A DNA stretch of 61,742 nucleotides, the filler included, from Jimgerdemannia flammicorona (taxonomy: Eukaryota): the NCBI GenBank assembly GCA_003990765.1. It is 3 parts of 3 records of this genome, joined end to end, with 100 filler letters (N's around TTAATTAATTAA, not from the genome) between each part and the next. Parts side by side here need not be neighbours in the genome. Positions count along the whole stretch, not along the records: positions 20,617 to 41,130 come from RBNJ01001664.1; 2 more parts are not named here. One strand, given 5' to 3'. Shown one piece after another: positions 14,466 through 61,458 of this stretch; position 1 is the first letter of the stretch, and each line of letters opens with the position of its first letter. The position numbers and the translations under genes are program-made. The notes under the pieces were generated by a model. That model was given only the letters and a program-made list of their open reading frames with translations. It searched no databases and was not told the DNA's origin.

Positions 14466-16105
14466 TAATATAGTTTTTTAGAGAAAGATACTAATATCAT
14501 AGTGACTAATAAGCATTCTGAGATATATACTGGGCAAGGTGGCCCTGATACATTCAACTAGTAGTATATAGGGAAGAGCCCTGGCTTGAAGAGAAGCATG
14601 AGGGGTCTGCTGGCAGGAAGATATAGTAGGGGAGAAAATAGTACTAGAGAACAGAGGACTGGGAGGGCAAGCTTCACAGATAAGGTAAAGGAGGGTCAGC
14701 AGAGAGCTGGGCTGGAGGGTTGGCTGAGGAGGGGCAAGGAGACAGTGAAGACTGTAGAATAACAGCTTCAAGGAAGAGTCCTTCTAGAGGACCAGAGTAG
14801 TAGGGCTGATAGTATAGTAACTGAGAGAGTGACTGCTGATAGGAGCATAATGAGCAATCTGAAAAAAATCTAGATGGGACTGCTGATAGTAGACTGAGCT
14901 GTGGGAAAGGCATGAGGCCTAGTGATCTGACTGATGGTGTAATAGGTCTGGTAGTGATACCATTACTCAAGAAGTCAATCTCAGAGTTCACAGTCACACT
15001 ATACTTCCAGGGCTTGATAGTGACAGTGAAAATAGTCTTAGGGCTAATTGTGAAGCAGATAGATGGAGCAGCATCAGTGAAGTTCCTGAGGGGCTTGGAA
15101 GAGATGGAGGTGGGCTTTAAGGAGACTGAGCCATTGAAAGCTATACTGAAGATAGGGTTGACTGTTGGGGAGATATGTGTTCCAATGGTAAGATGCTTGA
15201 GATGGGACCCCAGGGTGGTGTAACTTCTGATAAAAGGAGTGCCCATAATGATAGCTATAGAGATGAGGAGAATAGTAGAGGAAGTTATAGTAGAGTATAA
15301 AAAGGTAGTTGATATTGACTTTTAAGTCTGAGAAGAGATCTTATTTAGGATAGAGGATGTTAATGTTCAGCTTTGGCTGGCAGAGAGGAAGGCTACTGGA
15401 AAGACTCATGATTGGCCATTGATGATGATATGAAGGCCTTCATGTACAAGGTGATGAGGGTGAAGGAGAGTGAGGAGGAGGAGGAGAATTTATTAGAGGT
15501 ATTAAAGGAGATAAGTAGAGTAGTAAAGCAAAGGACAAAGACTTGGAAGGAGTATGTAGAGTTGAGACATTTGGAGATTATGGATGAGAAGTATGTCCAT
15601 ATGGATAAGAGACTGTAGGAGAGGTCTCAAGAGTACAAGAGGCAGAGAGAGTTGTTGGTGAGTCTGGAAGAAATGGTGAAGAAGGATGCTAGTGGTATTG
15701 AGGAGTCTGGGGGTGTAAAAGCAAGTGCCTGGACAAGTAAGTGAGGAGAGGAGATGACAAAGGGTCTGGATGAGGCTGGGAAGGTATTGAGCAATGACTC
15801 ATATACAGATGGTATATTCGAAGTTTGAGAGGACACCCCCCTCTTGTCAGGCAGGATCTAGCTATAAGGAGCTAAGTAGCAGAAGATGTACCAATGTGTA
15901 GTGCTCAGTGAGTACACTTTAGAGTCCCAGAGGTGGCAAAAGGGGGATAGGTAGTGGCTATTAGTGAGGATGAACTGGTGGATGTCCTGGAGGAGGAGTG
16001 AGATGAGACTGTAAGTACAGGGGCAGATATCTTGATACTGAATACAGAAAGGCCAGCAACTTCTGAGAGAAAGGAGGTGGGGAATCTACTCTGAATATAC
16101 TAGAT
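14466..16105 (+). mobile_element. LINE family A ORF1 region, inserted in the gypsy RT and itself interrupted by an LTR
   Basis: ORF1 peptide DLTDGVIGLVVIPLLKKSISEFTVTLYF...RCLRWDPRVV. Confidence 0.85.
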
Positions 16106-18744
16106 TGTAATACTTTAGCATAGTTTATTTCTTTTCTCTGTCTTTCTTGAATATTCTATAACCTTCCAGCACTTTCTGCATACTTAGAAATCCCCTTCTT
16201 GGTGCCGAGCATTAACTAGTACTTATTTAGCTAGTCATGGAATATCCTGGAAACTTGTAGAACTTTATTTGTCATCATTTGTCATCTTTGCCAAGAACTT
16301 TTCTCTTGGCATTTCCCTTTGATTTCTCAGATCCTTCTGGATCCTTCTTTCAGATCTTATATAAATATTCTCTTTGTCAGCTCCTTTCTCCGCTACCTTA
16401 CTGGTCACAATATTTGGTAGGTGACCTTCCGAGTCCCCTTTCCCTTAATATTATCCCCTCTACCTCGAGTTGGTTTGCTGTGCCTACGGGGCATGGTGGG
16501 AGGAGGGCAATGGTGATGAGTTGCCCCTTTATTGGTATTGGATCGGTGCTTCCTCCACTTTTTTGCGGATTCTGGTACCTTCAGCTGTATCTGGGGTATA
16601 CCCATTTTGGTGCGGCACCTTCTTCCTTTTACTGTCACCAACAAGGAGTTGTCTCAGTGTGTCTTGGGCTATGTAGGGAGTCAGCCGACCTTGGGTGTCA
16701 AGTGCTCAGTATAGGTTACCTGCAGGTCCTCAGTGCCTGTGGTGGGGCCCTCTGGCTTTGGTGAGCTTCCCGGCAAGTGTGGTTCTGGCATAGGTGACTG
16801 TTTTTCAGGTGATGTCAGGATGGGAGGGGAGATGGCTATCACAGATAGAAGGAAGGGCGATTACGGTGAACCAGTAGGGTGTCAGGCTGGGGGCGGTCAT
16901 TGGGGCTGGGGCGGGTGCTGCTTCGGTGGGGCCTTTTGATTGGTGCGGTGCAGTTAGGTGGTAGGTATCACTCTCGGCTTCTTTTGGCGATTTGTGGGGT
17001 AGGGCCCCAGTTGCCAGGGGAGGTCAGGGGGCCCAAGGCTACCCATTTCAGGCATCTTGGCTACACTCAACTGGAACTGAGAGCTGACATAGCAATATAA
17101 TCAAGGCCCACAAGCTTGAGTAGTGGGGTATTGAGGGTCTCCTCCTGCCTCATATATAAGTCCTCTACTTACTTTGACTGGGAGAACCAGGCCCTGCCCA
17201 CCGTATTGTGCTTTGATGAGGGTTTTTTCTTTGCCTGTCATTCTCTTTGGGGTGGCAGGGGCTATTCTATTCAGCTCAGGCATGGCCTTGTACATACATT
17301 GGGTTCTCGGGCATACACTTTTGGTCATTGGCATATGGCTGGGTTTCTCCTGGTGGTAGGGAGAGTATGGTGCACAGAATGAGGTGTAGACTACTTTGCC
17401 CTGCTGCACCTGGTATGGTCAAGCTGCTGGACAATAGCTAGCCTAGGTTAATGGGGGGGCAGTGCTTAGTGGGTAGTGGGGGAGGGTTTTGGCCTATATA
17501 GTCTAGGTTCCCTTTGAATAAAAATTTGTAGGACATAGAGTCCATTAAACAAAAAAAAAAAAATATATTCTCTTTATTCTTATAAATAAAGTCTCAGAAT
17601 ATTTTCTCCTAGAAATCCTTCAAGAATACTTGAATCTTTAAGTATCTCTTCAAGTTACTTAGAATCACCAGAACTAGTCGCTTCCTCATTTAGAAACTAG
17701 AACCATTATACTTGGTAGTAGCAGTTAAGTTACATCTAGCCTTATTAAGACACCTCTCAAGATATCAGTCACAACACTATGGAGGACAACAGGTGGAACC
17801 CTTCATACAGTACCTATGGTCCAGGCAATGCCTTATACAATCAGCAAGAAGAAGAGGAACAGCAAAACCCTACCCAGTCAAATGGGGCCATTGAGAGTCT
17901 TTTGCAGACTACATTAGCTCAGATTGCTCAACTTCAAGAACATATAGAAAGAAAGGAAAGCAAGGCCTCTGCTCATACCTCCACACCTCCACCAATATCA
18001 ATATATCTAACAGTAGTCACTATCAAGCCTCAGAAGCCTGATACCTTTGATGGTCAAAGAGGAGGACTGTCTACTGATATCTGGCTTTTCCAATTGGAGC
18101 AATATGGAGAACTGACCAATTTGGAAGAAGCAACACTAGTCCAATTTGCTGCCACACTCCTCCAAGGAAATACTGCAATCTGGTGGCAAAATCATGTCCA
18201 GAATACCAGATTCTCTGGCTGAATTAAGATCTGGAGTGAATTCTCTGATGCTATTCAAGACCAATTCAAACCAGTCAACAGCACCAAGGCTGTATGAGAT
18301 TGTCTGACAAATGTCAAACAACTCAAGTCTGTGTAAGTATATAATACACAATTCCTATCAATCCTATTAGAATTACCACATGTCACTGAAGATGAGAAGG
18401 TTGACAAGTACATCTGAGGCCTGAAAGGTCAAACCTGAGTTTATGTCAAACTAGAAGAACCTAAGGACCTAGATACAGTAATGAAAATTGCTAATAGGTT
18501 TGATGTCATCATCTATGGTCACCACTTTGAATAGAAGAGACTGTCTTTCAACAACAACAACAACCTTAGAAGAGAGGAACCCAAAGTCAGAACTGTTGGA
18601 CCTACCCCCATGGACCTAGACACTATCAATAAGAACAAGAAAGACAAGCTTATATCTGAGGAAAAGGAGTGTCTTAAGAAGGCTGGAGCCTGCTTCTTTT
18701 GTCATCAGCCTGATTACATTGCAATGAAATGTCCCAACATATAC
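16106..18744 (+). mobile_element. Ty3/gypsy 5' LTR (16106-17710), PBS and gag pseudogene (17779-~18740)
   Basis: TGTAAT...CATTATA termini; PBS TGGTAG at 17713; gag KPDTFDG..WLFQ..LQGNTAIWW; zinc knuckle CFFCHQPDYIAMKC. Confidence 0.85.
16376..17563 (+). mobile_element. ~1.18-kb non-autonomous LINE-mobilised element (SINE-like), copy 2
   Basis: Same 5' start (ctcctttctccgcta) and 3' end (aataaa..gagtc(c/t)attaaac(A)n) as copy 1; 11-bp TSD atattctcttt at 16365-16375 and 17565-17575. Confidence 0.9.
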
Positions 18745-20516
18745 ATCTTTCTCCGGTAACATTCAGGTTACATAACCCTTTGGCAATACTTTCGACACAG
18801 TTTCTGGAGAAAAGCTACTAGTATCATGGTGACCAACGAGCATCCGGAGGTATGTACCAGGCAGGGTGGCCCTGGAGCATTTGAATGGCAGCAAGTAGAG
18901 AGAGGCCCTGGCTTGGGGGGAAGTATGAGGGGCCTGCTGGCAGGGGGTCATGGTGGAGGAGAGAGCGGAGCTGGAGGTCAAGGGTCTGGTAGGGTGAGCT
19001 TTGCAGAAAAGGTGAAGGGGGGTCAGCAGGGAGCTGGACTGGAGAGCTGGCTGAGAGGGGGAAAGGTACCGGTGGTGGCTTCCAGGCAGTAACCTCTTGG
19101 TGGTACCTCTCTAGCGGGCCATAGGAGTGGAGCTGGGGGGGTAGTGGCTGGGGTGGGGACTGCTGATGGGGGTGTGATGGGTGATCTGGAAAAAAATCTA
19201 GATGGGACTGCTGATAGTGAGCTGAGTGGTGGGAAGGGCATGAGGCCCGGGGACCTGGCAGATGGTGTAATGGGACTGGCAGTGGCTCCATTACTCAAGA
19301 AGTCAATCTTGGTGTTTGCAGTCACGCTGTGCTTCTGGGGCTTAGCAGTGATGACAAAAATAGTATTGGGGCTTATTGTTAAGCAGGTGGTGGGAGCGGC
19401 TTCAGTGAAGTTTCTGAAGAGACTGGAGGGGGTGGAGGTGGGATTTGAGGAGGTTGAACCACTAGAGGAGGTGCTGAAGGTTGGGTTGGTGGTTGGGGAG
19501 GTGTGTGTTCTGATGGCGAGGTGTCTGAAATAGGATCTGAGGGTGGTCCAACTGCTAGTGAAAGGGGTACCCACAGTGACAGGTGATGGAGACAAGGAAG
19601 AGAGTGGAGGATGTCATGGTGGAGTACAGAGAGGTGGTGGATATCAGATTCAGGGTCTGGGAAGAGACTATACTCAGGACTGGGGATGTGGATGTGAGGA
19701 TTCGGCTGGCTGGAAAAGAGGCTACCAGGAAGACAAGGGACTGGCCTTTGGTGTTGGTCTGGGGAGCTTTCCTGTGCAAGGTGACGTGAGTGAAAGGAAG
19801 TGAAGAAGAGGAGGAAGATTTATTGAAAGCACTGGAGGAGCTGGATGGGGCTGTGGAATGGCGAGCTAAGGCCTGGAAGACTTTCAAGGAGTTGACACTC
19901 CTGGAGGTGGTGGATGGAAAGAGGATTCGAGTGGACAAGGTGCAGTGGGAAAGGGCTCAGGGGCGGAAGAGGCAGAAGGATCTGCTGGCTAAGCTGGGAG
20001 GTGGACCACAGAAGGATGCAAGCATGAAGATGGGTGCAGAAGGGGCCGGAGTGAGTGTCTGGGCTAGTGAGAGGAGTGGGAATGATGGGGCAAAGTCAGG
20101 GAAGGCTAAGGAGGCAAAGATTAGCGACCTATATGCTGATGGCACCTTGGAGGTTTGGGATGAAGTCTGGGAGAATTCCCCCACCCCTTCCCCTCTTATC
20201 AGGCATGGCCCGGCTTCCAGGAACAAGTCTGGGGAGGACATGACGATGCTGGGGACCCAGCAGGTGAAATTTAGTGTTCCAGAGGTATTGGATGGGGACT
20301 GAGTAGTGGCAGCAGGGGAGGAGGAACTGGTGGATGTCCCGGAGGTGTGGGATGAGGACGCGAGTACAGAAGCTGACACCACGATGCTGGATGGAGGGAG
20401 GCCAGCGACCCCTGGTGGAAAGGAGGTGGGGAACCTACTTTGGATGTGCCGGATGATGAATAACCTGGCGGCAGAAGAGCTGGGGGAGGTGGACTTGCAT
20501 GGGATGGGTGACGAGC
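18745..20516 (+). mobile_element. LINE family A 5' UTR and ORF1, cut by the contig end
   Basis: Starts atctttctcc; ORF1 from ATG 18826, with stops and a frameshift. Confidence 0.9.
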
Positions 20517-20616: not shown

Positions 20617-21013
20617 AAAAAAAAGATAATAGTTGGCTCACTATAGGGTAGGTTTTAGTAGTATGAGTAGGGCTGACTGGACATTAGCTCTTTGTTTTTG
20701 AGAAGGGGTACTAGATAAGTATATAGAAGAAGTTATTATGATGGGAGGGGTTGATGGGTAATTTGCTGACTGGGTAATAGACTGATTGAGATCCCCAGAG
20801 TGGGTGACATCACCATCTGATAGAAAGAATTTGTAAACAGAGTAATAGATAAGTAGAGATAATATTTGATAGAGTGGTCTTTCATTAAGAGAGGGGGGGA
20901 GGGGGCCCTAGGGGGATTAGATAGAAGTGGGCTCTGTATATTATATAGAAGATAGATGAGTATATTAGTAATAAAGTTGGAGTCCAAGAGACTATAAAAA
21001 AAAAAAAAAAAAA
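20617..21013 (+). mobile_element. LINE 3' end with poly(A)
   Basis: Decayed ORF2 C-terminus followed by aataaa..gagtccaagagactat(A)n. Confidence 0.85.
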
Positions 21014-21244
21014 ACTCTTGAGAAGGCCTAGACTAGGTCTTCTCTTTTCAAATACTCTGAGCCTATTAAACTTTAGCTTACTATCTCATCAAAACTTATT
21101 AGATCTTAATAAAACTTATTATATATAATTACTGGACTCTGCTTTATCTTATAGATAAAGTAAAAACTTGAAAATATATTACTTTTTACTAAAAGATACT
21201 TGTATAGCTTAGTCTACTTTATATAGTTTGAATAAAAGAAGTCT
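21014..21244 (-). mobile_element. Decayed 5' fragment of LINE family B
   Basis: Aligns by eye with 31720-31964 (aaaaacttgaaaat...aaaagaagtc). Confidence 0.75.
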
Positions 21245-22035
21245 GACTGATCTCTATTTTATCTGAACATTGTCTAAATAAAATACTAGTTACAGAAGTT
21301 ATTTATTCTGACTTTTGTCAAAATATAAGTTATAAAGTTATATTTAATAAAAATGTAAGTTATTATATAGGGCATGCTGCAACAAAACCAGATAAAGTGA
21401 ACTTATAATATCAGACAATTTCTTCAATTTCAGCTCTATTTTCAAAATAAACAATTTTCACTCAATTTCTTATTAATGTCTTTCCTAAGTCTTCAATATA
21501 AAGAGTTGGCCATACTTTTTTATTTGATCCTCCAAAGTTTTATTGCTAGTCAGTATATATAGTTGCTGATGAATAATGAGACAATCTCTTAATATTACAA
21601 CATTCAACTTATTTTTATTGAGAAATTCTTAACTTCTTTAGTACAAGTTATATATATGCCTAGTTTCATTGACACTAATGCCCTAATCAAATCGTTACAG
21701 CATCACTTTCATTTCTATCTAACAAGAACCACCATCATCTTTTCTATCCACCTAATCATCAACTTCTTCACATATGACTAACACATCCTGACAAAATCTT
21801 CAGATGATTCTAGTACAAAAGACAAACTATGTTAACATAATGTATAATTACCAAATGACATAGTCAAAATATGTACTTAGCGCACCACTAGTTGCATAAG
21901 TTTCTGCTTATGGATAAAAGTGCAGGCCTTAAGTAGGCAGTTAATTGATCAGAGATGTCATGGCGTCTAGCCTAAAAGTTATACTCAACATTAGACAGTA
22001 GGGAAAGCCAAGAAAGAAGTCTAATTTGGTACTAT

Positions 22036-22284
22036 CCACCACTCCGCCGTCTAAATGACAGGCGCGGGCATGGTGGCCTACCTTTGCGCACAGGGAAGTT
22101 CACCGTCTAAATGACAGGCGTGAAGTCTTCCCGCACGCACCTCCGCCGAACTGATCAACTAAATGTCAAATCAGCCGGCAGGCGACTGTGATGAGGAGGT
22201 CACCGTCTAAATGACAGGCATGATGGTCTCCCTTCACACTTCCATCAACAGCCGCCGTCTAAATGACAGGCGCGGACGTGTGGG
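22036..22284 (+). repeat. Periodic array of five hairpins with core CCGTCTAAATGACAGGC and unique self-complementary arms; possible structured RNA or regulatory element
   Basis: Exact 17-mer at 22047, 22103, 22203 and 22255; degenerate unit ctgat..acTAAATgt..atcag around 22160; TAAAT loops spaced 56, 52, 48 and 52 nt. Confidence 0.9.
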
Positions 22285-22389
22285 CAAAGAGATGTGTTTA
22301 CACTAAGAAAAAAAAATTCAGACAAACAGTCATGTGAACGTGATCTCGTCGCGTAAAACACGAAATTTCTCGCTTCAACCACTTCAACC

Positions 22390-24389
22390 ATGTCTGTCAG
22401 TTCCGAACCAAAGCTTGTAGTAGCAAAATATTTCAAATTCCAGTGCGACCCGAAAGCACGTGGTATTGACGGTTTCTTCAAAACAGTGCCAGCATCCAAA
22501 TGGTCATTGGAGGCTTACATTAACCATAACCTCGAGCAGTCTGGCGATGATCTTGACTTTGACCAGTTATTCGCCATTTTCACGGAGAGTCTCGACCAGA
22601 TCAACCAACTCATTGCCGTTCCTGTGTCGATTCGGTCGGTTTGCAGTAACTATCTTAGTTGGCTACAGGTACTTTTTTCACTTGCGTTGTAAAGTATCCA
22701 GTAATCCGCCTTATAACATCTATTGTAGACATTGACAGGTAAAGGAGCCGTCGAGATATGCCGCGGCTTCTTCGAAGCTAAAATATTGCTTAGAAGGAAA
22801 ACTTCTATGAAAGCTGTGGTTGAGGTACGTCAACAATGATGAACACATACATGGCAATGGAGATACTTATATCTACCATTGATCTTTCTTGCAGGAAACG
22901 GTGAACGTCACCGCCCATACGGAGGCGTATCAAAGTCACCTGCAATCTCTCGTCCATGTTAATGAAGCATTCCCCGAGTTTCCGCAGTATGCGCCTAGGA
23001 CTCCACCAAATCTTCAAGGGGACCTGACATTATTAATGAAAACACCTAACAAAAGACCGTTAGAAGATGAACAAGTGCAACAGTAGGGGTTTCATTGTTA
23101 TGCTTGCCATACATTTATGACAATCGAATGTTTGTCGATGACTATTTTCACCCTTCCTTTTTCCATCTAATAGGTACTCGCACGACGCTACCGTCGTCTT
23201 TGCGTCCGAGATGACCGAGGAGTTAAAAGCGAAAATCGGAGAGGATCTCGCTAAGGAAATATCCTCGGTGCGCGGAAAAAACCCTGCTGTTTGGACACCT
23301 GCCTTGGAAAAGTACATCGATAATGCGCTCAAGGCATGTATCCCTTAAAATTTCTTCATACAAAATTCCAATCTTGGTACTTACTTTATTATACTACAGA
23401 AAACAGGTGACGACTTTAAGCAGGCAATCCAGATCAAAGCACCGGATGTTGGGGACGAGCTGTTCCGACTATATTGCGAGAAGGTTCTCATTGACTTGTA
23501 AGCTTTGCCGTTAACATCTATCGATTGTGCCTACGGAAATATTGATTGTCACATCTCTTTTAAAATATAAGCTTCAACCTCGTCGATGTCTGTTCAACGA
23601 TGAGCCGGAAAATCGGCGAGCGAAAATACATCATCTACCATATAGCATCGCTCTTCAAGTTTTACGAGACTACATTCATGACACTCAATTTCGATTGGGT
23701 GGAATCTCATGCTCATGCTGCTAAAATGGCAAAATCATCCACCACCTCTGGAATTGTGCTTGTTGATGCGAAAGCAACAAGAAACTCTGATGGCCTTATG
23801 TATGGCACATGGAAGTCTCTGGGCCCCCCTCGAACGCAACTATCGGTCATACATTGGATGACACCAAAAAAACCCTCCGAATGGACATTTTGAATTTGAT
23901 AGCACTGCTACAGGATCATCTTGACTGTGATATAAAACTGGCAACGAAGATTAAAGTGTTCAGCACTCAGGCGATTGGTTTGTAGCAGTTGTGTAATGGT
24001 ATGATTTTATAGAGATCGTGAAGAAATATTTTTTTGATAATTATCCCTGTCTTTTCAGGCACCCGGCTGACACTCTACGCTCTAAACTTGCTTCCTGATG
24101 GCTGCTTTCTTGTGACCGAGCTCGCTTCTGCTCTCATACCATTCAGCTTTAACGGCCGGAGCCAATATAAGGCCATCCTCCGGATGATGGCGATATTTCA
24201 CGTACGTTTTCAGATAAATTTAATGTTTATGATGGCTTTCCGGATGCTCATACGGTGGCGTTTTACTATTAGGATGAGGTGACGAGGCAAGAGAAATTAC
24301 TTGGGGAGATTAATCAATTCGTACTTCGAATAGCGGAAACAACAGTCCGCCAAGTGTTGAGAATGCCGAAGATAATAATGGAAGGATGA
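22390..24389 (+). CDS. 8-exon gene, ~495 aa, with a C-terminal PD-(D/E)XK restriction-endonuclease-like domain; apparent 1-nt frameshift at ~23798 (pseudogene or sequencing error)
   Basis: Exons 22390-22668, 22729-22824, 22895-23082, 23174-23333, 23400-23497, 23572-23977, 24059-24201 and 24273-24389 have phase-compatible splice sites (one GC donor); motif VDAK..DG..VWHMEVSGPP..H..DDTKK..R; CpG retained. Confidence 0.75.
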
Positions 24390-24583
24390 GTTGTGGAGGA
24401 CGAGTTAGGCGAGCAAGAAATGTAGATAAGGAGAAAAAGAACTATGGGATTTATCAATAAACGTTGCAAAGAAGAGTTTATGATAGTATTCTATAACTGC
24501 TGATAATATGCTCAATGTTATTTTTTATGTATAACTATTCCTATATAAATAATTATATGAAACTAATTTATGTCAAATCCACT

Positions 24584-26177
24584 ATGGAACCTAAAGATTA
24601 CAGTACCATCAGAAGCATCTTGAAAAGAGAACAAGGTGAAAAAATTGCTCCTTATATCTTCAAAATAACAGATACCAAAATTATCAAAGAGTATTTAGAT
24701 AAAGAGAGAATTATCTATGAAATTTACCAATGATTAGATGTCAATTCTAATAGAAATATAAATCTATCTTACAAAGATAATTCTGGACAAAGTCAGCAGG
24801 AATTAAATCCTAGGAAATGAGAATTACCAGAAACTTCTGAAGAATCAAGGAAAAAGAGAAAAGTGTCAGAAGAGTAGAAGTATATAGGGATAGTCCTATA
24901 TATTTTAATACATTATGTAAGAAATTTTACAAAACCAGACAAACTGTGCATAATATATATAAAATATATATATATAGTAGACAACATAATTATGAATGAA
25001 TATGAAAAAGCTCTTTATTTTCTGGAAGTAGGATGCGGTTGTGGTTGCTTACCCAAATTGCCTAAGAAAGAATTTGCCAAACTGTGGAAAGATTTTCAAG
25101 TGCTAACAAAACCTGAACAAGATATCTTTTTAATGGCCCAACTCAAGACCATGGATGGAGAAGTGACTAATACTAGCTATCATCTTAAAAAGAAAGCTCA
25201 TGTCAATAAGAGAACTATCTACTGCTGAAATCATAGTACTCTGATTTACCAAAAAACTTACCTCAATATACTTGGCATTGGCCATAATTATTTTGAAAAT
25301 ATTTGAAATTATTTGTTAAAGAATGATCTTCTACTGTGGATCCATGGTAATGTAAAAAGAATACCACAGTGAAAATCCAGGATGGTTATCAATATTGATG
25401 TTACTACTGCTATCAAGAATTTTTTGCTAAATTATACCAAAGTTCACAGCTTATCTAGCTCAGTAAGAAATGTTAATCAAGTCACTCTATCAATTATCTT
25501 TCTACTGGCAGAAATGAGCTACAGGTCTGTTTACTGGAATTTTTTAGTTAGTCTAGAGGATAATAATAAATTGCATAATCTCAAGTATAATATATTCCAT
25601 AAATTATGGTACTAGTTAACTCTATATATTCAAATCATAAGTCCGAGGACTGATTTATATGATACTTACCAGCATTTGCAAAATGACTTACAGTTCAAAG
25701 CTTGTAAAGAGGAAGAGGCCCAAGATTTATTAAAAAAATATAAAGAGCATCTGGCCAAAGCCAAACTAGAGAGAAATTATTATAACAAAAATACCAAGTT
25801 GGCAGAAGAGCAAAGAAAACTCATTGACCAAAATTATTCTGTACTGAAAGACAAAGCACCATACTGCAGCATTGACATAGTGGTCTATTACAGTTATGAT
25901 TGAGCTCAAAATGTCCATGTGCCTCATTCAGATCAACAGATCAGCAAGATATATTATCTTAGTGCTCATAAAGTGTACTTATTCAGTATCTAAGATGAAG
26001 CAGTCTATGAGCAAATGAATTATGTGCTAGATGAGAATGAACTCCTTGGGAAAGGTCCGAATAGTATACTTAGTCTAGTCTTTGATGGGATTAAGTAGTT
26101 GAATAAAGGTGAAAAGCACTTAAAAATCACTTGTGACAATATAGGTGGACAAAACAAAAACAATACTACTCTTTGAT

Positions 26178-26214
<37 letters not shown>

Positions 26215-29200
26215 GTCTCTTGGACTCCTTTATTACAACTATCTAATACAATAACGAAGAACTACAAATCACTACTAATCCTATAACATATACAGAAGTA
26301 TAGTCTTTCAGCCAACTCCTTCCTTCCATCTCACCCTACTATCATCTAACACCAGAAACCCTCGACTCTGCAGTACAATGTCCTGTACCTTTTTTAAGGC
26401 CCCTGGCTGAAGTCACCTCCCCTGATACCACCACCTCTGAACCACCTCCTGTATCAGCCACCTCCACTGCTCCACCATCTCTCCAATCTCCATCCATGGG
26501 TCCTGTTCAAAAACCAACTGCCAATGCACTGCCATCAAGACCCAGACCCCCAAAATTTGACCTAAGCCTCTCCATATATCACCAATTTCCCCTACCAGCT
26601 GGCGCTTAACCACCAGACTGGTCGGATCCTCTGCCCTATGCCTCACTGGGCCCCAGTAACCTTCCAGACTCTGCCAAAACCCTTCCATATCTGGACAGGC
26701 CCCCAGAACATGTTCTGGCATCTAAACAACCCCGCCATCCACCTCATTACACCACTCATAGTCTCGACAGCCATCCACCTCCATCCAGCCTGTCCAATAG
26801 CTCAGCATCACATTACATCTCAAGAACTGCCACCAAACCACCCAGTATTTGGGAGTACCATCTTGTGTACCGAGGTTCCCCAATTCCAAATTCGAACCCA
26901 CTCCCAGTCCTCACCAATACTAGCTCTCTGCCAACCAGGGGGCCATCTCTCCAGAGGTCCAGACCTGATCCACTCCATCACCTCAATTAGGGAGTACTCC
27001 TTCAGACTGTGGCCACCCACATGCAGGTCACCCAGTCACCACCATCGCTGCTCAGGGTCCACCCCCACCTCTATCTCTGGGCCTGCCAACCCCATGGCCA
27101 GCCAGGCCTCTACAATACCCCATCAGAACTCCTTGAAATGCAGCCTACCTATACTTCCAACCTGAAGCAAGCCCCGCATATCCTTCCAGACTTTACCACA
27201 AGGGCAGAACTGAACCTCCCAATTGTCCATGGCCAGCCTGCCCCAACCTTCCTCACCAAGTTCCATCAGTCGGCACCCCCACCAACCCCGCAGCACCTTC
27301 AGTTGTTGCCTGAAATCCACCAGCCCCAGGCCACCATCAGAAGTCCTCATCACCAAAGTCTCCCATCCAATCTGCAGATGCCTCCCACACTATATCCACC
27401 CTTCGACAATCTTCTTCAACTGCTGCACCACCCACCCTGGAAAATCCAGATGATAACCCAGATACCACAGTTTGGGCAGCCAATACACATTCAAAACCAC
27501 TATCCTGCCAACCAAAGAGAAGCTCCTTCCTGACCAACCCATCAATGTGCCTTCCAGTCTCTGAATCAATCCACACCACTACTTCTTCAGCAGGACTGTC
27601 CCATATACTGAGAACCAGATACCCAGATACCGAACAGCACTCCCTATGGTTACTAATTGTCCGAATTGTCCATGTCCCCCCAGGCCAGCACCAAGTTCCA
27701 TTGTCTCACACTTGCCCCAGTTCAACTTCGCTCCTGCCAGCCTCTCATACTGACCCACCCCTTCTTGTAGGGCTACTACATCCTCCCAACTGCCCAACCC
27801 TACCACCATATCATCTGCAAAGACACCCAACTTCCAGACCACTTCTCCCATTTGCAGTCCAGAGAGTCATCCCTTCAACCACACCAATAAAGGTTCTAGA
27901 GAGAGTACATAAAGAAGGGGGGAGAGAGAATCCCCCTGTGGTACCCCTCGCCCCAAGGCAAACTCTTGTCCACACCATTCATCATCACCATAGCTTGGCA
28001 TCCTTGTACCAAGCCCATCAATTGCCCTGCCTCTGCTGCACCAAACCCTGCTTTCCTCAGAATAGCCTCCAGGTAGCTCCACCGCACTCTATCATAGGCC
28101 TTCTCTTGATCCAGAAAAACCATCTGACCATCTACCTGCTGGCTCCTACAGCTCTCCAAAATATTCTGCACCCAAGCAGTACTATCTCTGATCTGCCTCC
28201 CCTTGACAAAGCCTCGCTGCTCTTCTCCAACTAGTGCACCAACATATTACTACATTCTCCCTGCCAGAATCTTTGATACCAACTTTCTATCCACATTCAG
28301 CAGCATGATAGGTCACTAGTTGCACCACACTTGTCGAACTCCCTTTTCCTTGTATAGTAGAGAAACTAGTCCCAAGGAACCATTGCCAATCCAGCTACTC
28401 TCCTTCAAAACAGCATTGGCCATCTCTACCAACCAGTTACCAAACTCGGCCTTGAACTCCTTCCAGAATTCCCAGGGCAACCCACCCTCTCCAGGAGATG
28501 AACCAGTCTGCGTCTTTCTCAGTACTTCCAATACTTCATCTAGAGACACCTCCCCCATGACCGCCTCTCCTATCTCAGGTATTACTGTCACTGGCCAATT
28601 GGTCACCATATTATCATTATCCTCCCCAAGCCCAGCCTCCTCAGCATGCTCCCCACCATCCTGCCAAAGAGCTTGCCATTGACTGGATACCTCCCCAAGC
28701 ATGTCAGCAATTCCAGAGACCTCTACTCCATTCTCATGCAATACTGTAGCCCAACTGTGTCACACTTGCCTGGCCTTCAAAACACCAGTCAGATATGTAT
28801 CTCATTGGCCTCTCACCTTCTTCCAACCATCTAGCTCGCAGTCTTGCCAGCAGGCCATCCACTACCCTGGTCTCTGACACCCTTAGCTCCACCACCTCTA
28901 ATACCAACTGGTGTTGCACCTCTCCAGACAAGTTCCTCTTTTCCAAAAGCTTCAATCGCCATCTCAGCCCCTTTTCAACTCTCCTTTCCTTGTCCTTCTG
29001 TTCCTTCCTGGCTACTTCTCCAACATCCTGCCAGTAAGCACCAGCCAAATGTTTGAATTTACCCCACCATTCTGCTATCAACTGCCTTTCATTCTGCCAT
29101 CACAAAACTTCCTGTCTCACAACTGTCACAAAATTGTCCCTCTCCTTCTTCCTCTTAAGTAAGGCTACATTGAGGCACCAGCACCCTCCACCACTACTTG

Positions 29201-32200
29201 CTGCTTGAAATCTACCACAAACCTCCACTCTCCAGTAATCAGACCAAGGGCACCAGTGCACCTCCACAGTGTCCAGTATATTGCCCCAGCACTCTGCCAC
29301 TAGTACCCAATCTATTTGCATCCCAACCAATGTTGTTCCAACTGGATACTATCAGGTGAAAGGTCCCAACTTATCCCCCTGTTGTTGACGAACTCCATCC
29401 ACCAAACCCATGTCATGCTCTACCTGAAGCCACTGAGAAAGTCCAGAGGATACCGCGACTCCTGCTCCACCATCAGACCTATCTAGTGTATGATCATGCA
29501 CCATGTTAAAATCCCCCCCCAGAATGTCCAAAGCAACTACCTCCTGACCATCCCATGCCAGCCATCTCTCAACCCATTGCTTTCGCTCTCTGCCAACTGC
29601 AGGGAGGTAAACTGAGCCAACTGTCAAACCATCACCAGCCCCACCTTTTAGTCTTCCCCAAATCATTCTGTCACCATAGGCCTCTACCTCCACTAGCTCA
29701 CCTTTGCCCACACCAACCAAGATGCCCACCTGCTTATTTCAACCTGCTCCACCATACCATTCTTTACTCCACATCTCAAAGTCTGACTCACCATAAGCCC
29801 GAACATTCTGAAGAAACACAACATCATACCTCCTGACTTTAAGCCATCTGAAAAGCTGCCATCTTTTAACACCATCCCACAATCTATTGACATTGATCAA
29901 CAAAATACGTAGGTTGTTCATCATCATTAAGGAAATTGTTTAAAGCTCAGCAAGGACTGCCACCACTTTCTCAGCCCTTCCTCTAACAATCTCTCGCTGG
30001 TCTTCACAAATTGCCTTCCAGATCCGATCACCATTAGTACTGCTGCAGAAAAGGTCCACTCTCTCTGTTGCCACCTTCCTGATATCGGCCATCCTGCTCT
30101 CATCAACATCATATCCTTCATCATCCAGCAGAGCAGCTATCATTGCCATCACCAGCTTAGGCCCCTGTATTGCTACATTGAGGAATCCTTCCCACACCTC
30201 CTGAGATCCATGAAACACATCCACTTCCTTGATGTCTTCCTCTGCCAGCTCCTCAAGAACTGCCTGATACCAGCTCTCCACCGTCATCACCAGGGGTCCG
30301 GGAGTCAATGGCCTAGGGGTCCTGCTCAGCTCCTGCAATTGCTCTCTGTCTGCTGACACATCTGAAGCCACATCCACCAGCTCATCCTCCTTGGCAACTT
30401 TCTCCAAGTGAATAACCTCACCAGCTTCTGGGTACTCTCAATGGACATTCACTGCCCCCACCATATGAATATCCTCTACCTGAGTCTCCAGCACCACTTC
30501 ATCATCAACTTCAAAGCCTCCTTCACCAACCTCCTTATCTGCCCACTTTCCCCTCACCAGTGTATGTGCTGAGTTCTCAACACCACCCAGCTGGGAGAAG
30601 GACACCTCCACCACCTCCACACCTTCCATCTGATTCTTGGCCACCTCTACCCTTGCCTTCTCTTCCACAGCTGCCCCTTAAAGGGCCACCTGCAGATGCT
30701 CCCAGTTCTCTTTTCTCCACCACTTCCGCTTGCTATCAGCCTTGATCCAGACCCAATCCTTGGCATACTCCTCCCACTTCCTCTTTTGCAGCTCCTTGGC
30801 AGCCTCTTTCTCCTCCAGAGCAATCACCAACTCTTCCTCCTCCTGTTCAGCTCCCTTCCTCCTCCAGACCTTGTACTCCTGCCCCCCAATTCTAATCCCC
30901 TCAGGCCAATCATGGTCCAGCCCAGTAGCCTCCTTGCCTTCCAGTCACAGCATCACCTCATAGTTGCCATTCCTCAATTTGGTGCCCTCCCAGAATATGA
31001 ACCTGAAGTCCACCATCTCACCATATCCACCTAGTGCCTCCACTACCATCTCCTTGGTCTCCTGTCTGCCCAGGGTTGGCAAACCTTCCACCACCAGTCG
31101 AACAGCATGCAGATCCCACCTCAGACACCTCGCCATCCTGATCCGGATACCTTTGACCATCATCTCTTTCTCCAGCACCTTCACCATTGCATCCTTCTCT
31201 ACAAATCCAATCTCCACAGCCTCTGCTGAAGGGATGAACTTCAGAGATTCCACCCCAGCCACTTCCTCTCCCACTAACCTCAGAACCTCCCTTGCTGACA
31301 TCACCAATCCCAGGAAGTTTGCCATGACTGCCCATGTCGACACCGATTTGTGAAAGAAGGGCCTCACCACCAGCTCGCCTGTCCCTGCTGCCAGAGTCAC
31401 CTTTCCTTTGGCCCCTGAAATACCTGTAGTTGTCCCACCAAGTCCAGCTATACCACCAGCAGTCCTCTCCCCAGCCACCTGCCCAGCCACAGAAGAACCA
31501 GTCCCCAGCATCCTACTACCAGACCCCTGTCTCCTGCCAGCCACCTGACCTGTCACCTGACTCATCACCTGACTCCTCCCTATGCCTCCCCTGTCCAACC
31601 CCCATGGGCCTAACAGCAGCCCTCCTATTCCCAACCACCGTATACCAGACCTCAGTCCCACCAGTCCTCCCCTGTCCACCAGCCCTCCCTGCAGCCACAC
31701 CAGTCCCAGCAGCAGCCGCAAAGCTCTTGGAAATACCCAGACCAGGCCTCCTCCTCTCCAGACGCTCAGAGCTAGAGGAATCTTGACTAGCCATATTGCC
31801 AAAACTTGTCTGTTTTTCTTGAAACTTATTGTGCCTTATAGGTAGACTCCTGCCACATGATGTACACCAGTATGCTCGAAATAAAAACTTGAAAATGTGT
31901 TGTCTTTTGCTGAAAGATGTCTGTGTGGCTTAGCTCTCTCCAAATGGTTCGAGTAAAAGAAGTCCTAATCTCTTTGATTTTACTTGTATTTGGTGATTTG
32001 TGGTTATTATAAAAGTATTGAATTGAACTTCATAGTTCTGGATCATACCAAATTCAAATATGATGGTAGTTTTGGACTGATCAAAAGGCTTTATCATAAA
32101 ACTATAGTAAATTGTATAGATTATATCATTAATATAGTAAAAAGATCTAGCATTACTGGATTAAACAAAGCTTGACATTATAATGGTGATGAAGATTTTC

Positions 32201-32377
32201 AATATTATGACATCATAAGTGGCCTAGAAACTTACTTTAAAAAATTACCTGGCCTACAAAAGTTTTAGCACTTTCTTTTCACCAGTACTAATCCTGGGAT
32301 AATCAAAGCCCAAGCAGTTGTGAATGGTCCTTTCCAGGAATTCAAGTTATTGAAGACTAAATCCACAATTCCTTAAC
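24584..32377 (+). mobile_element. Sola-like DDD transposase pseudogene, split by a LINE and cut by an LTR
   Basis: Motifs GCGCGC, HGN, PRTDL, YD(W)AQN, KGPN and DNIGGQNKN precede 26183; HTKFKYDGSFGLIK follows 31985. Confidence 0.75.
26184..31969 (-). mobile_element. Full-length LINE family B copy 1 (L1/Tx1-like: ORF1, APE, RT, C-terminal Cys domain), decayed
   Basis: Motifs GGDFN, PGEGGLP, FLDQEKAYDRV, GVPQGD, FADD and YLGI; poly(A); 15-bp TSD ctctttgattttact at 26169-26183 and 31970-31984. Confidence 0.95.
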
Positions 32378-35350
32378 TGTAATAGAATGAACGAGCAAGC
32401 GAACAGATGGGAGGCAATGAGGCGAGTGATCACATGACCCGGCGGTGATGATGTCATCATATGAATGAAGTGCGACATACAAATTATGAATGACAAATGA
32501 TGCGAATGATATGAAATGATGTGGAAAACAATATCCAGCTTATCTCCAACAATCGGTACTGCAGAAACTGTTGCCACAGTAGCTGATGATTGCCTAGTAA
32601 TTGAGGTTCTGATCATAAAGTTGTTTTTGCCAAAAACTACCTGACAAAGGTCATGATCACAAACCTCATTATAGTTACCAAATTAGTCACTCATACTTAG
32701 TTAGAAATCATGGACCAACTTGTATAAATACCCCCCAGTTTCCATCTGAAATAAAGCAGTTTTAGTTCAGTCCTTGATACAAGAATCAAGTTCCCCCCCC
32801 ATACATATATTTCCCTGAGTCTTAGTAATGACACCTAAGTGACTCTAGTATTTCTGACTAAACTCCAGAAGTCTAGCTAACTTCTGCCAGAACTGAGACT
32901 GGTATATAAATCCTCTAAAGACTTAAATAAACCCATTGAACCTGAATTCCAAAGTGAATTCAGTCTGTGCATAGCAAAGAACAAGACCCTTGAAAGATAG
33001 GGCATACAAGAGAAAGACCTTTGAAACAGAAGGTACTACTACTATAACTATTTATAAGCAAGCACTTCCTCAACTGAAGGCTTCTTGGTATATATTATAT
33101 ACTAAGTCTCTAAGTAATAGTCCACTTCCCTAATTATCCAAAGGATAAGAGAGGGGTAGAAGTGAGAGTTATTACAACTTGGTAGCAGTGGATTACCAGC
33201 CAAGAAGACACCAAAGAACACACTTCTGAAGTTGGAATAAGACCAACCTTGGACAGAAGTAATCCCCAGAATCAACTGTGGATCCTCAAACCAGAGCTAG
33301 AGAAGCCCTTACCATTAGGACCAGGTGGTACCAGGAAACTACAGACCCAAGGACCCACTAGCTTGTAATTGACCAGGCTTATAAGGATCTATATCAGGCC
33401 TTTAGGACATACCACCCAGGACTTAGAAATATTATCAGCTGCCATAGGTTCTATGAACTCCTCTGAGGATACATTAGAACTACTAGGACCCCAGAATCTA
33501 CTGCTACAGCTACCCAGGATTTTCTAGATAATATCACACCCTCTGTTATAAGAGAAGTAGCTGCCAAGTAGATTGCCTCTGACAGATATCATTATACCCC
33601 TACCAAGACCTCTCTCTACTACAGGCTAGTTGTATACTACACCTCTGCTATAACCAGGTACAAGAACGAGCAAGTAGGCCAACCATCTCCTACTGCTGAA
33701 CAAGAAGCAGGCCCATCTACCCAGCCAGAGACTGATATCCTCTTTGAAGGACCAGGACACACTATCTCATCAGGGAAGGGAGTCAGACGAAGACCCTACA
33801 GGTTACCAGTCTGACAATAGCCAACAAGGAACAGTAGGCCTAGGAATTTATCAAGGAACTATAGATTAAGAAGAACAGACCCCAGAACCAACCCAGCCAC
33901 CTATATAGAGATTTGGTTTACCCTCTCTCACAGGACTCTTTGATCTAATATCCGGAAATCAAGTAACCCCAAGTCATACAGTACCACAACCCCATCAAGC
34001 CAAACAATCTTCAGAAGAAGCTACCCCAACAGGCCCACTACCAATAGTCAATACAATGGTAGATGCCAATATTGTAGCACTGACCACCCAGCTAGCAGCA
34101 CTAGCAGGGATAGTAGAACAGATTGCTGAACAGAACAAACCAACCAAGACTCTGCAAATTCTAACATTTAGTAGAAAAAACAGTGACATTGAAAACTTCA
34201 TCAATGTAGTTGATACAGGCTACTGAGCAAACTAATGGAATGATAACTGAGTGCCTATAAGAATGCTCACCAACAACCAGAACAGTACCCTTCAACAACT
34301 GTTTGTCACATCAGCAGCATAAGTAAAAACAGTAGCCACATTCTTCACTAGAACAGTAGCTAAATTCTAGTAAACCTTGGAACAACACCCAGTAATCTGG
34401 GAAGCCTGCCCTCAAGTCAATGGATAAGTACCTGCCAACAATAGACCAGATTGGGATGACTATGAAGCAGGCTCAGGACTCAAGGTCTTACTACTGACCA
34501 AATTCTGAAATGTGATCTATATATAAGAAACTTGGAACAAGCTGTCTCAGATGAAGTTCCACAAGAATGGCAAAGAGGATCTAGAGATCTTTGTCACCAG
34601 AATGGATGTCTACCTCAAAACTATTGGACTTACCTACCAGGAGAACAACTTGGCCATCAATGGTACCAGAGCCAACCATCTGTTTGCAGCCCTATCAGAC
34701 TGGCTCACTCAGAAGATCAAGAAATAAGGTCTTCCCCAAGGATGCCCCCACTACTCATGGTGCTTTGCCCAAGTATAAAGAAGAGCCCATGAAATCCTTG
34801 CTACATAAGCTCCATGAAATCAAGAATACAAGAAGGATAACCAAGATAGAAGAAACTCTACCAGAAGAAACAACCAAAAAAATGAGCAAAGATATGATTA
34901 AAGAAATGATCAAAGGAACTAGTGAAATCCCAAAGGACCCAGACCTCCCACCAAGGATGAAAAGAAGTAGCTTTACAAAAAAGAATTGTGCTTCATCTGC
35001 AAGAAGGCAGGATATATCTCAGTCAAATGCCCTGAGAAGAGAAACAGATCAGGCGAACCCAGTAACCAGAACATTACTATTATTGGAGAAGGTCCAGGAA
35101 AGAAGAATCCTGAGAATGTCATCAAAGTACAGAAGATATGGTACAAGGCTACCATTCCCACTAAGACCCACTTGACCAATACTGGATATGACCTCTACAG
35201 TAGTCAAGACCTCACTATTCCACCAAGTACCAATGCTATAGTGTGAACAGGAATTGCAATACAAGCTCCCAAAGGTATATATATCTGCCTTGCTAAGTGA
35301 AGCAGCTTAGCTAAAGAGTTCAATATTGGGCTAGAAGAAGGAGTAGTTGA
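32378..35350 (+). mobile_element. Ty3/gypsy 5' LTR (32378-33176), tRNA-iMet-type PBS, gag and dUTPase fragment
   Basis: TGTAATA...TATTACA termini; PBS TGGTAGCAG at 33180; zinc knuckle CFICKKAGYISVKC; dUTPase TGYDL..TGIAI..SSLA..GVVD cut at 35350. Confidence 0.88.
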
Positions 35351-60800: not shown

Positions 60801-61458
60801 AGGAGATGGCCAAGATTTACTGGAGTGAAGCTGACAAGGAGGCAGGGAAGCAGCGAAGGCAAAGAGTGTGTTGGGCCTCTACTAGATTGACAAGGCTCCT
60901 GGAGAAGTGGGCAAGGCTGATGATATTGGAGAGAGAAGAAGATTGGAGATTAATGAGGGTGAAAATGGAGGTTGGGGAACTACAACAGGTGCTGTGGGAA
61001 GAGGAAGAGGCAAGGGTACAGAGCTTGGCAGCATGGCTTCGCTGGCAGGATCTGGAGGAAGGGGAGAGGCCTTCCAAGTTTCTTACAAGGGCCCTTAGGG
61101 CGAGGCAGGTACAGCAATGGTGGGAAGGGGTGTTGGACTCAGATGGTATACTGGTGCATAGTGTACAGAACATTCTTGGATCACTGAAGGAGAGATGGAG
61201 TGGATTGTGGAGTGAGGAGGAGGGTGGGGCAGATGCCACTACCATTGAATGAACATTAGAGGATTGGCACCCACTACAAGTTGAGAGGCTAGGTGACCTG
61301 GTGATGCCTGTACAGGAGGATGAGATCCACCAGGTTCTTGCCACGACAATGCCAGGTATGGCACCTGGGGAGGATGGTCTGCCCTGGGACTTTTGGAAGC
61401 AAATGGTTGGCATCCCAGGAGTAATGAGAGAGATGACAGCAATGTGCAACCTTGGACC
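57803..61458 (+). mobile_element. LINE family A (ORF1 from 57884, ORF2 from 59939), interrupted by the next LINE
   Basis: 437-aa APE-containing ORF (NVNGL, LQD, GGDFN, EGERP), followed by PGEDGLP. Confidence 0.92.

Follow-up and report, generated by a model that had tools for sequence, protein, structure and literature searches.

The stretch of DNA considered here, a 61742-base window of the genome of the fungus Jimgerdemannia flammicorona, holds an array of five stem-loop units that share a common apex. The array is followed on the same strand by an eight-exon gene, whose family appears to have a restriction-endonuclease-like fold, and then by a decayed gene of the transposase-like DUF7869 family; the coordinates are collected in Table 1. 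A first-pass annotation of this DNA had joined array and gene into a candidate RNA-array/nuclease system, and had offered the array as an RNA antitoxin, a guide or decoy, or a multivalent protein-binding 5' leader. Our analysis suggests that the array is a selected cis-element and that, among these options, only the protein-binding leader fits.

The array is built on a 17-nucleotide (nt) core, CCGTCTAAATGACAGGC, present in four exact copies on the + strand with core-to-core spacings of 56, 100 and 52 nt. No further match to this core occurs in the window with up to three mismatches allowed; the chance expectation for the window is 0.09 copies, and none of 100 shuffles gets to four. A degenerate fifth unit lies within the 100-nt gap, and the TAAAT loops of the five units stand at 22052, 22108, 22160, 22208 and 22260. 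Cores, degenerate unit and loop positions had all been placed correctly in the first-pass annotation, as had the distance from the end of the array to the start codon of the gene at 22390, which we confirm to be 105 nt and to lead into a gene of eight exons. The array is thus confirmed as a real and specific repeat, far above chance. Each apex contains an overlapping TAA-ATG-TGA, which in an RNA gives five upstream AUGs opening reading frames of 15-31 codons. Rfam returned no match in the window at its gathering score, and a tRNA scan of 20617-26204 returned no gene; literature searches on the apex motif, DUF7869 and the nuclease-fold family found nothing relevant. Rfam rows for RNA-OUT, mir-341 and ssnA (21600-22500, E<=10) lay far below the gathering score with E of at least 1, at chance level, and were set aside. 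Of the transcription-factor-site types considered (homeodomain, bZIP, zinc-cluster and MADS), none fits all units.

Outside the core the sequences of the units diverge. Near the core there are two stem types only, one in units 1 and 5 and one in units 2 and 4, and the distal stems are all different (CCACCA/TGGTGG; GGGAAG/CTTCCC; GGAG/CTCC with TGTGA/TCACA; CACAC/GTGTG). Units 4 and 5 share the hexamer TCACAC at 22234-22239, which forms the distal stem on the 3' side in unit 4 and on the 5' side in unit 5, so that the outer stems of these two units are mutually exclusive. Folded singly and compared with 200 dinucleotide shuffles each, units 1 to 5 reach -22.0, -16.7, -10.6, -18.7 and -19.0 kcal/mol (z of -3.72, -3.13, -3.27, -1.61 and -2.20), with 0, 2, 2, 16 and 1 of the 200 shuffles as good. 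When the 20-nt 5' flank is paired with the 3' flank and compared with 1000 flank shuffles, 23, 14, 45 and 338 shuffles are at least as good for units 1, 2, 4 and 5, and the summed duplex energy has a z of -3.6, with no shuffle reaching the sum; the corresponding control for unit 3 (134/1000) was run on mis-centred flanks. With the core fixed and the flanks shuffled, whole-unit folding is significant in units 1 (0/500) and 2 (16/500). Against a background of 8696 GC-matched places elsewhere in the window, the fractions pairing at least as well are 0.014, 0.008, 0.13, 0.008 and 0.11 for units 1 to 5, values that may be flattered by the strongly strand-skewed repeats of the window.

Aligning the four exact-core units over five core-adjacent pairs and three pairs in the core, we find standard pairs in 30 of 32 cells and three pairs in which both bases change. 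Column shuffles do as well in 4 of 500 cases, and with slid registers 19-56% of cells are paired. Because there are only two stem types near the core, the covariation there may amount to a single event. The earlier claim that the flanks of each unit pair within the unit therefore holds for the set as a whole, whose pairing is real, but not evenly: pairing is strong in three or four of the five units and weak in units 4 and 5 by some controls. Likewise, of the five units only 1 and 5 have as their lowest-energy structure the fold that had been proposed for every core, GTC-TAAAT-GAC above an asymmetric C/AGGC internal loop. What the units have in common is the 17-nt conserved segment at the tip of a variable stem. 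The array thus presents an invariant apex on compensating variable stems, as do untranslated regions (UTRs) with several regulatory hairpins.

The array is present in RNA-derived contigs, which bears out its transcription. In run X3, a 709-nt contig (21680-22379, depth 33.1) covers the whole array and stops 10 nt short of the ATG, and a 1571-nt RNA contig (record 12, depth 105.7) is the mRNA of the gene with all seven introns removed; the end of the latter has 23 unplaced letters by 22412. The values of the X3 intron bins equal the exon bases in them times depth (116 x 105.7/177 = 69.3; 108 x 105.7/177 = 64.5), and an intron depth of zero means that there is no DNA-derived cover at the locus of the gene in X3. 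In X11, a soil metatranscriptome, an 86-nt contig carries two unit-5-like copies 56 nt apart with 21 other letters between them, one exact over 35 nt and the other with three mismatches. The X11 form of unit 5 is without the 10-nt bulge, CACACTT lying 10 nt further out in the window than its counterpart in X11, and the new 5' flank of the second copy (..CGCACTT) would pair with the 3' arm ACGTGTG. Where the window is compared with X1/X3 over 21680-22382, none of the 10 base differences and neither of the two indels listed falls inside the array; among the differences listed, this is only a hint that the array has been spared. X4 has no cover on the array and, with a depth of only 0.6-18 on the gene, is uninformative here.

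Protein models of relatives, where gene prediction has read into the array, indicate that array and gene belong together. The first 12 residues of the Ambispora leptoticha orthologue model P0066 correspond to window positions 22163-22198, in units 3 and 4, with 12 of 12 identical. Three models of a paralogue (~50% identical) contain the SDDR motif three times ahead of the family N-terminus, at distances of 24 and 17 residues: P0006 (A. gerdemannii), P0116 (A. leptoticha) and P0098 (labelled Gigaspora margarita). By tblastn the surroundings of these motifs are collinear with window units 1, 4 and 5. The apex peptide reads SDDR in place of LNDR in all three units, and the paralogue frame stays open across units that lie in different frames in the window; together these imply a paralogue loop that is shorter by one base in each of the three units. 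On this protein-level evidence the array is linked to the gene in two paralogue lineages; the related array of one metagenome contig, L002, is discussed below.

Two further models have unusual N-termini. In P0116, residues 1-90 include an upstream open frame ending ..YGIVTDGRAWYFVEF.. that is fused to array and gene and has no counterpart in the window; the YGIVTDGRAWYFVEF motif resembles the end of other restriction-endonuclease-type domains. In P0082 (Acaulospora morrowiae), the peptide AVAR, in the form SPAVAR or one close to it, occurs four times within residues 10-70, at intervals of 15-18 residues that are near the period of the array, and P0082 may be another member in which a different upstream array has been translated by the gene finder. 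A 17-mer scan of metagenomes gave 17 loci, among which only L002 is related; the other 16 have a single core in recurring unrelated flank contexts, two of them terminator-stem-like, and were judged chance. No match at E<=1e-3 was obtained by tblastn of five family proteins against all 17 loci. L002 also contains, just downstream of its decayed array, a pair of ~50-nt inverted repeats (~985-1045 and 85-135) about 850 nt apart, which looks like a small non-autonomous transposon.

The exons of the gene sum to 1487 nt in the window, or, with the extra G that X1 and X3 have after 23797, to 1488 nt, that is 495 codons and a stop. Intron 4 (23334-23399) has a GC donor and an AG acceptor, once the two ambiguous letters of the RNA joint there are shifted. 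The window frameshift falls between the DG and E.SG (here E-V-S-G) parts of the D..DG..E.SG..H..D..K motif noted in the first-pass annotation: the string is present, but split by this one-base change. The window product is cut to 379 amino acids, and the database record is a 379-residue 'hypothetical protein' of Jimgerdemannia flammicorona. The X3 copy lacks two bases at 23451 and has an additional T at 23894, with consequences that are visible in the 383-residue Endogone sp. protein P0097; the X1 copy has 2 and 11 bases fewer in exon 7. The three copies, ~97-99.5% alike, thus each have frame-breaking changes of their own, and judged by its reading frame the window copy is dead. The transcript is still abundant and spliced in X3 despite the frame breaks.

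With 82 residues of exon 6 as the query, phmmer found 65 proteins among 1.84 billion representatives. A profile search gave 57 relatives, 48 of them labelled Glomeromycotina, 4 from two Endogonales assemblies and 5 unlabelled, with none labelled bacterial; as far as these database labels go, the family is known only from arbuscular-mycorrhizal-type assemblies. It is multi-copy with many truncated members. The ESM Atlas lists 30 look-alike clusters, and each of the three displayed is assigned to Eukaryota, Mucoromycota being the most frequent phylum. Pfam gave no family at E<=1 beyond noise for seven exon pieces and six full-length relatives, and a precomputed Pfam domain is found in 0 of the 57 relatives. 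Some members are nearly identical across taxa: A. leptoticha P0066 is 97% identical to the window protein; P0001 (J. flammicorona), P0097 (Endogone sp.) and P0066 are 91-97% identical across different subphyla; and P0006 (A. gerdemannii) matches P0098 (labelled Gigaspora margarita) at 96% identity over the array-derived N-terminal stretch compared. Near-identity across subphyla suggests either mixed samples or recent transfer of the element.

The first-pass annotation had called the product a PD-(D/E)XK-like nuclease. The fold part of this claim is borne out at moderate confidence by an AlphaFold2 model of the relative P0074 (33-row alignment, mean predicted local distance difference test score, pLDDT, of 77.2), whose C-terminal core runs alpha-beta-beta-beta-alpha-beta (H279-302, E305-309, E333-337, E343-350, H358-381, E395-402). 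A Foldseek check of the model against the PDB returned 0 matches at E<=0.001. VIA-align placed two mitoribosomal chains on top (Z 10.1, 202 residues aligned, root-mean-square deviation 4.8-4.9, identity 5-8%), followed by the DrdV nuclease domain (Z 7.6) and BpuSI (Z 7.3), with Z of 7-8 being the middling range on the tool's own scale; further rows with a restriction-endonuclease fold are EcoRI, HsdR, MunI, SgrAI, NgoMIV, BbvCI, Hjc, McrC and NucC. A profile search against PDB sequences found no solved-structure chain below E 0.06, the best (0.06) being unrelated. The catalytic part of the claim, unlike the fold, is not supported by the conserved residues. D332, directly before strand 333-337, is conserved in at least 90% of alignment A1 and is not on the 90% list of A2, and E348 in strand 343-350 is nearly invariant, but the canonical (D/E)xK lysine is missing, position E348+2 being A or S (family E-V-A/S), and there is no named-family profile match. 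Conserved K367 and D372 on the next helix of the model could substitute for the lysine.

The DUF7869 gene (PF25273) starts 195 nt past the stop of the nuclease-fold gene. Its first exon corresponds to the N-terminus of Geosiphon P0185, and its body matches 85 proteins, of which full-length members carry Pfam DUF7869 (E 5e-16 to 1e-6). The family is multi-copy with many truncated members and forms large clusters spanning arthropods, nematodes and fungi, in one of which 11% carry DDE_Tnp_ISAZ013. A structure model from a 15-row alignment has a mean pLDDT of 38.8 and is unusable, and a profile search against PDB sequences found nothing relevant. The order of the two genes recurs in relatives: nuclease-fold then DUF7869 sequences are fused in the models P0066 (A. 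leptoticha) and P0104 (Geosiphon), and P0095 and P0168 are the consecutively numbered A. leptoticha genes 12758 (nuclease-fold) and 12759 (DUF7869), whose contigs are equal in length. This arrangement suggests that the pair is one mobile or formerly mobile two-gene unit, a context that the transposase-like neighbour makes likely. A complex prediction for P0095 with P0122 scored 0.00 with alignments unused and speaks neither for nor against binding. A comparison of 21244-22400 with 32300-35400 for terminal inverted repeats gave inverted matches of at most 11 nt, and no second repeat array was seen in 31965-35354; both are weak tests on a decayed and interrupted copy. Nor did we find element boundaries or target-site duplications.

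The insertion in the DUF7869 gene is one of two inverted copies (26205-31964 and 35355-41130, 91-95% alike) of a ~5.8-kilobase repeat with an extreme G-versus-C strand skew (~0.45). More diverged copies lie at ~14861-20515 and from 51228, 53508 and 58175. The repeat is probably a non-LTR (long terminal repeat) retrotransposon, because one diverged copy has an open frame (59909-61249) with an Exo_endo_phos (AP-endonuclease) domain. Pairs of 44-base N-runs, 12 bases apart (20517-20560/20573-20616 and 41131-41174/41187-41230), stand beside the ends of the big repeats. Upstream of the array, a segment of ~40 nt (21361-21402) has very high depth in all four runs (130.7 in X1, 4343 in X3, 1779 in X4) with many different flanks attached, and contigs break there; it may be the end of a high-copy repeat or a fragment of an abundant RNA.

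Table 1. Features of the array, the nuclease-fold gene and the DUF7869 gene, in window coordinates.
Feature	Positions	Strand	Basis or defining sequence
Five stem-loop units with common apex	22036..22290	+	core count, flank-pairing and folding tests
Unit 1	22036..22076	+	arms CCACCA..CCGC / GCGG..TGGTGG; core 22047-22063
Unit 2	22093..22132	+	arms GGGAAG-TTCAC / GTGAA..CTTCCC; core 22103-22119
Unit 3, degenerate	22146..22178	+	CCG..CTGAT / ATCAG.CGG around TAAATG at 22160
Unit 4	22187..22238	+	arms TGTGA..GGAG..TCA / TGA..CTCC..TCACA; core 22203-22219
Unit 5	22235..22282	+	CCGC/GCGG beside core 22255-22271; distal CACAC/GTGTG across 10-nt bulge
Eight-exon gene, putative restriction-endonuclease-fold family	22390..24389	+	RNA contig joints, frames, tblastn of relatives
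Exons 1-4	22390-22668, 22729-22824, 22895-23082, 23174-23333	+	X3 RNA contig, frames
Exons 5-8	23400-23497, 23572-23977, 24059-24201, 24273-24389	+	X3 RNA contig, frames
Exons 6-7, predicted restriction-endonuclease-like core	23572..24201	+	model of relative P0074, tblastn
Frameshift (G present in X1 and X3, absent in window)	23797..23798	+	run comparison, frames
DUF7869 (PF25273) transposase-like gene, 5' part, decayed	24584..26170	+	sequence matches, Pfam of relatives
5.76-kilobase repeat copy inserted in DUF7869 gene	26205..31964	.	repeat comparison
DUF7869 gene, continuation beyond insertion	31969..32361	+	sequence matches

How might such an array act? The reading we favour, to which we give somewhat less than an even chance, is that it is a multivalent set of protein-docking hairpins in the 5' leader RNA, with an upstream AUG in each unit. 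The apices would then form a docking platform for one sequence-specific protein, either the two-gene unit's own product or a host factor, and the bound protein, or the hairpins themselves, would decide whether ribosomes pass the leader to the main frame; binding might also set the stability of the RNA. RNA as the form that is read, the binding of a protein and the effect on translation are all parts that we infer. The argument starts from the arms, which differ between units yet pair within them, as expected if selection acts on a folded single strand rather than on a duplex site; since the array is present in RNA-derived contigs, RNA is the simplest such strand. A dimeric protein binding duplex DNA would not require unit-specific arms, which again counts for the folded form. 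Moreover, an apex that is invariant, repeated and changed in concert in the paralogue would suggest that a single sequence-specific binder co-evolves with it; alternatively, the concerted change could stem from gene conversion between units.

Several observations weigh against this leader reading. Productive leaders rarely carry five or more upstream AUGs. Units 4 and 5 pair weakly by some controls (165/500 and 106/500 with the core fixed, and 338/1000 in the duplex test of unit 5), and units 2 and 4 favour other pairings of the core, so the apex fold is not uniform. Both DNA strands fold equally well (z -3.7 versus -4.1; flank sums z -3.6 versus -4.4), and nothing in the folding therefore favours a sense RNA over DNA hairpins. 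The depth of the mRNA contig is three times that of the array contig, and this gap, together with the unplaced end of the mRNA contig, means that most transcripts may exclude the array; the array contig and the mRNA contig may also stem from separate molecules, and from either strand. Among relatives, the paralogue arrays back-translated with degenerate codons show no significant complementarity (sums reached by 106, 165 and 223 of 1000 shuffles), while L002 has just two units at the contig edge, the second decayed and the flanks unpaired, with no homologue of the gene in the next 1.2 kilobases.

The same facts can be read at the level of DNA, with the array as subterminal binding sites, or as hairpin or cruciform DNA, of a two-gene transposon and read by the transposon's own proteins. 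We regard this as unlikely, if by no means negligible. It would account for the DUF7869 gene that follows in the window, in P0066, in P0104 and in P0095/P0168, for two families that are multi-copy and full of truncated members, and for three near-identical gene copies with different frameshifts, as in decaying mobile DNA; the concerted loop change of the paralogue would fit co-evolution with an element-encoded binder, the equal folding of both strands is what DNA hairpins would show, and the DUF7869 Atlas cluster with 11% DDE transposase domain adds a transposase connection. Yet beyond the DUF7869 gene there is no second array, no core with up to three mismatches and no terminal inverted repeat, the window holds one copy of the unit only, its boundaries and target-site duplications were not found, and depth in X1 is single-copy-like over the locus (8.6-10.9, against 130.7 at the 21361-21402 repeat). 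A DNA site also has no need to be transcribed, as the array is, yet transposon ends often overlap promoters; and because they often overlap both the promoter and the leader of the element, the RNA-leader and DNA-site readings are not mutually exclusive. A bolder form of the transposon idea, which we consider improbable, would have the two genes encode the partner subunits of a cut-and-paste transposase like TnsA/TnsB of Tn7, but in a eukaryote. The array would be their recognition platform, read as hairpin DNA at the element end, as RNA autoregulating the first gene, or as both, and the paralogue loop change would record the co-evolution of each element lineage with its own binder. Our literature search found no description of a TnsA/TnsB-type transposase in eukaryotes, only a general review.

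A simpler proposal, in our view rather improbable, is that of a promoter module: four or five 17-bp transcription-factor sites, 105-354 bp before the start codon, whose palindromic flanks are incidental or are remnants of duplication. Position and clustering in one orientation are typical of fungal upstream activating sites, exact conservation is limited to a core the size of a site, the many upstream AUGs disfavour a leader that is always translated through, and the threefold greater depth of the mRNA contig points the same way. It leaves unexplained, however, why unit-specific arms pair within units and why the X11 copy has a different yet complementary 5' flank; the array is found in RNA-derived contigs, and a one-base change of spacing in all paralogue units is awkward for a fixed protein-DNA interface. 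The remaining proposals fare much worse. An RNA antitoxin as in ToxIN, a decoy, or a guide array cut into ~50-nt units is suggested by the layout alone, a repeat array directly upstream of a nuclease-fold gene, and we think it very improbable: the units are unequal in length and spacing, their variable parts are self-complementary and so not free for targets, the gene is eukaryotic with eight exons and seven spliced introns, the fold is apparently restriction-endonuclease-like with no ToxN-like RNase among the best 50 fold matches, and all three of the close copies examined have frameshifts in the gene although the cores remain exact. Here the first-pass annotation is not supported. Just as remote is the idea that the array is, or was, a coding region of N-terminal SDDR repeats. 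Although P0006, P0116 and P0098 read through the paralogue array in frame, they join it to the gene in three different ways, like prediction artefacts; the window array has stops in all three frames with its units in different frames, and the X3 RNA contig is without such a splice.

Were it to act as a multivalent RNA operator, the array would be a rare natural example among eukaryotes beyond iron metabolism. It would combine repeated invariant-apex hairpins with an upstream AUG in every apex, and would open a way into a gene family that is unnamed and much expanded in arbuscular mycorrhizal fungi, whose gene regulation is hard to study. If instead the DNA-level reading is true, the locus would point to a transposon of two genes, one for a protein with a restriction-endonuclease fold and the other for a DDE-like transposase, a pairing so far known from bacterial Tn7-like elements. 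Either reading is specific and can be put to the test, as the 17-nt apex, the one-base-shorter paralogue variant and intact orthologues are each defined. The analogy with bacterial toxin-antitoxin or guide systems is not borne out, the mechanism proposed in its place is inferred, the local gene copy appears dead, and the family is uncharacterised.

In type III toxin-antitoxin systems of the ToxIN kind, a repeat array lies directly upstream of the toxin gene. The present locus is alike in having its array directly upstream of a gene with a nucleic-acid-cutting fold, and differs in the uniformity of the units, the operon structure and the domain of life, and perhaps in the toxin fold. Where ToxIN has tandem repeats of fixed length, only 17 nt are shared here, with different flanks and spacings of 56/100/52; where it has an unspliced operon of bacteria or phages, there are seven spliced introns and 0 of 57 relatives labelled bacterial; and where guide arrays have free unique spacers, the variable segments pair within units and vary in length. 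Iron-responsive elements offer a closer parallel: five occur in the transferrin-receptor 3' UTR and one in the ferritin 5' leader. They too are UTR hairpins, several together, with an invariant loop and bulge on compensating variable stems, through which one protein controls translation or stability; the differences are another apex sequence and, here, a fungus, a transposon-associated gene, an AUG in each apex and a reading as RNA that is only presumed. In the coat-protein operators of the phages MS2 and PP7, a short stem with a bulged A presents a specific loop with a start codon, and binding represses translation. The short stem and the sequence-specific loop that includes a start codon recur here, but the phage operators are single and stand at the true start codon, whereas the array has five copies with upstream AUGs and the bulge on the other side.

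As to what might bind, the two mitoribosomal chains that are the best structural matches of the family model (3j7y_5 and 7a5f_s3) are, we assume, mL37 and mL65. A review, PMC8998825, describes mL37/mL65 as 'repurposed endonucleases' that hold ribosomal RNA. Since the top matches, if they are these proteins, bind RNA with a restriction-endonuclease-like fold, they would set a precedent for RNA binding by this fold, although identity is only 5-8% and nothing points to a ribosomal role for the fungal family.

The genomic context recalls transposons. The ends of Tn7 hold several transposase sites. Its core, and that of CRISPR-associated transposons, combines the restriction-endonuclease-like TnsA with the DDE protein TnsB, according to PMC10761935. 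Our locus is similar in placing a restriction-endonuclease-fold gene beside a transposase-like gene, with four or five near-identical sites at one side; it differs in being eukaryotic, in having its sites on hairpins and no second end found, and in that DUF7869 is at most a candidate DDE enzyme, and TnsA does not appear among the best 50 fold matches. In En/Spm (CACTA) elements, subterminal repeats overlap the promoter and leader, and a protein that the element encodes binds them and regulates expression as well. Common to both would be a short motif, present many times in a 5' subterminal transcribed region of a two-product transposon, whereas En/Spm belongs to another transposase family and has short inverted or direct repeats without variable stems, and terminal repeats were not found here. 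Taken as analogies, the closest relatives of the array in logic would be clusters of iron-responsive elements and phage operators, and in context transposon ends with multiple sites.

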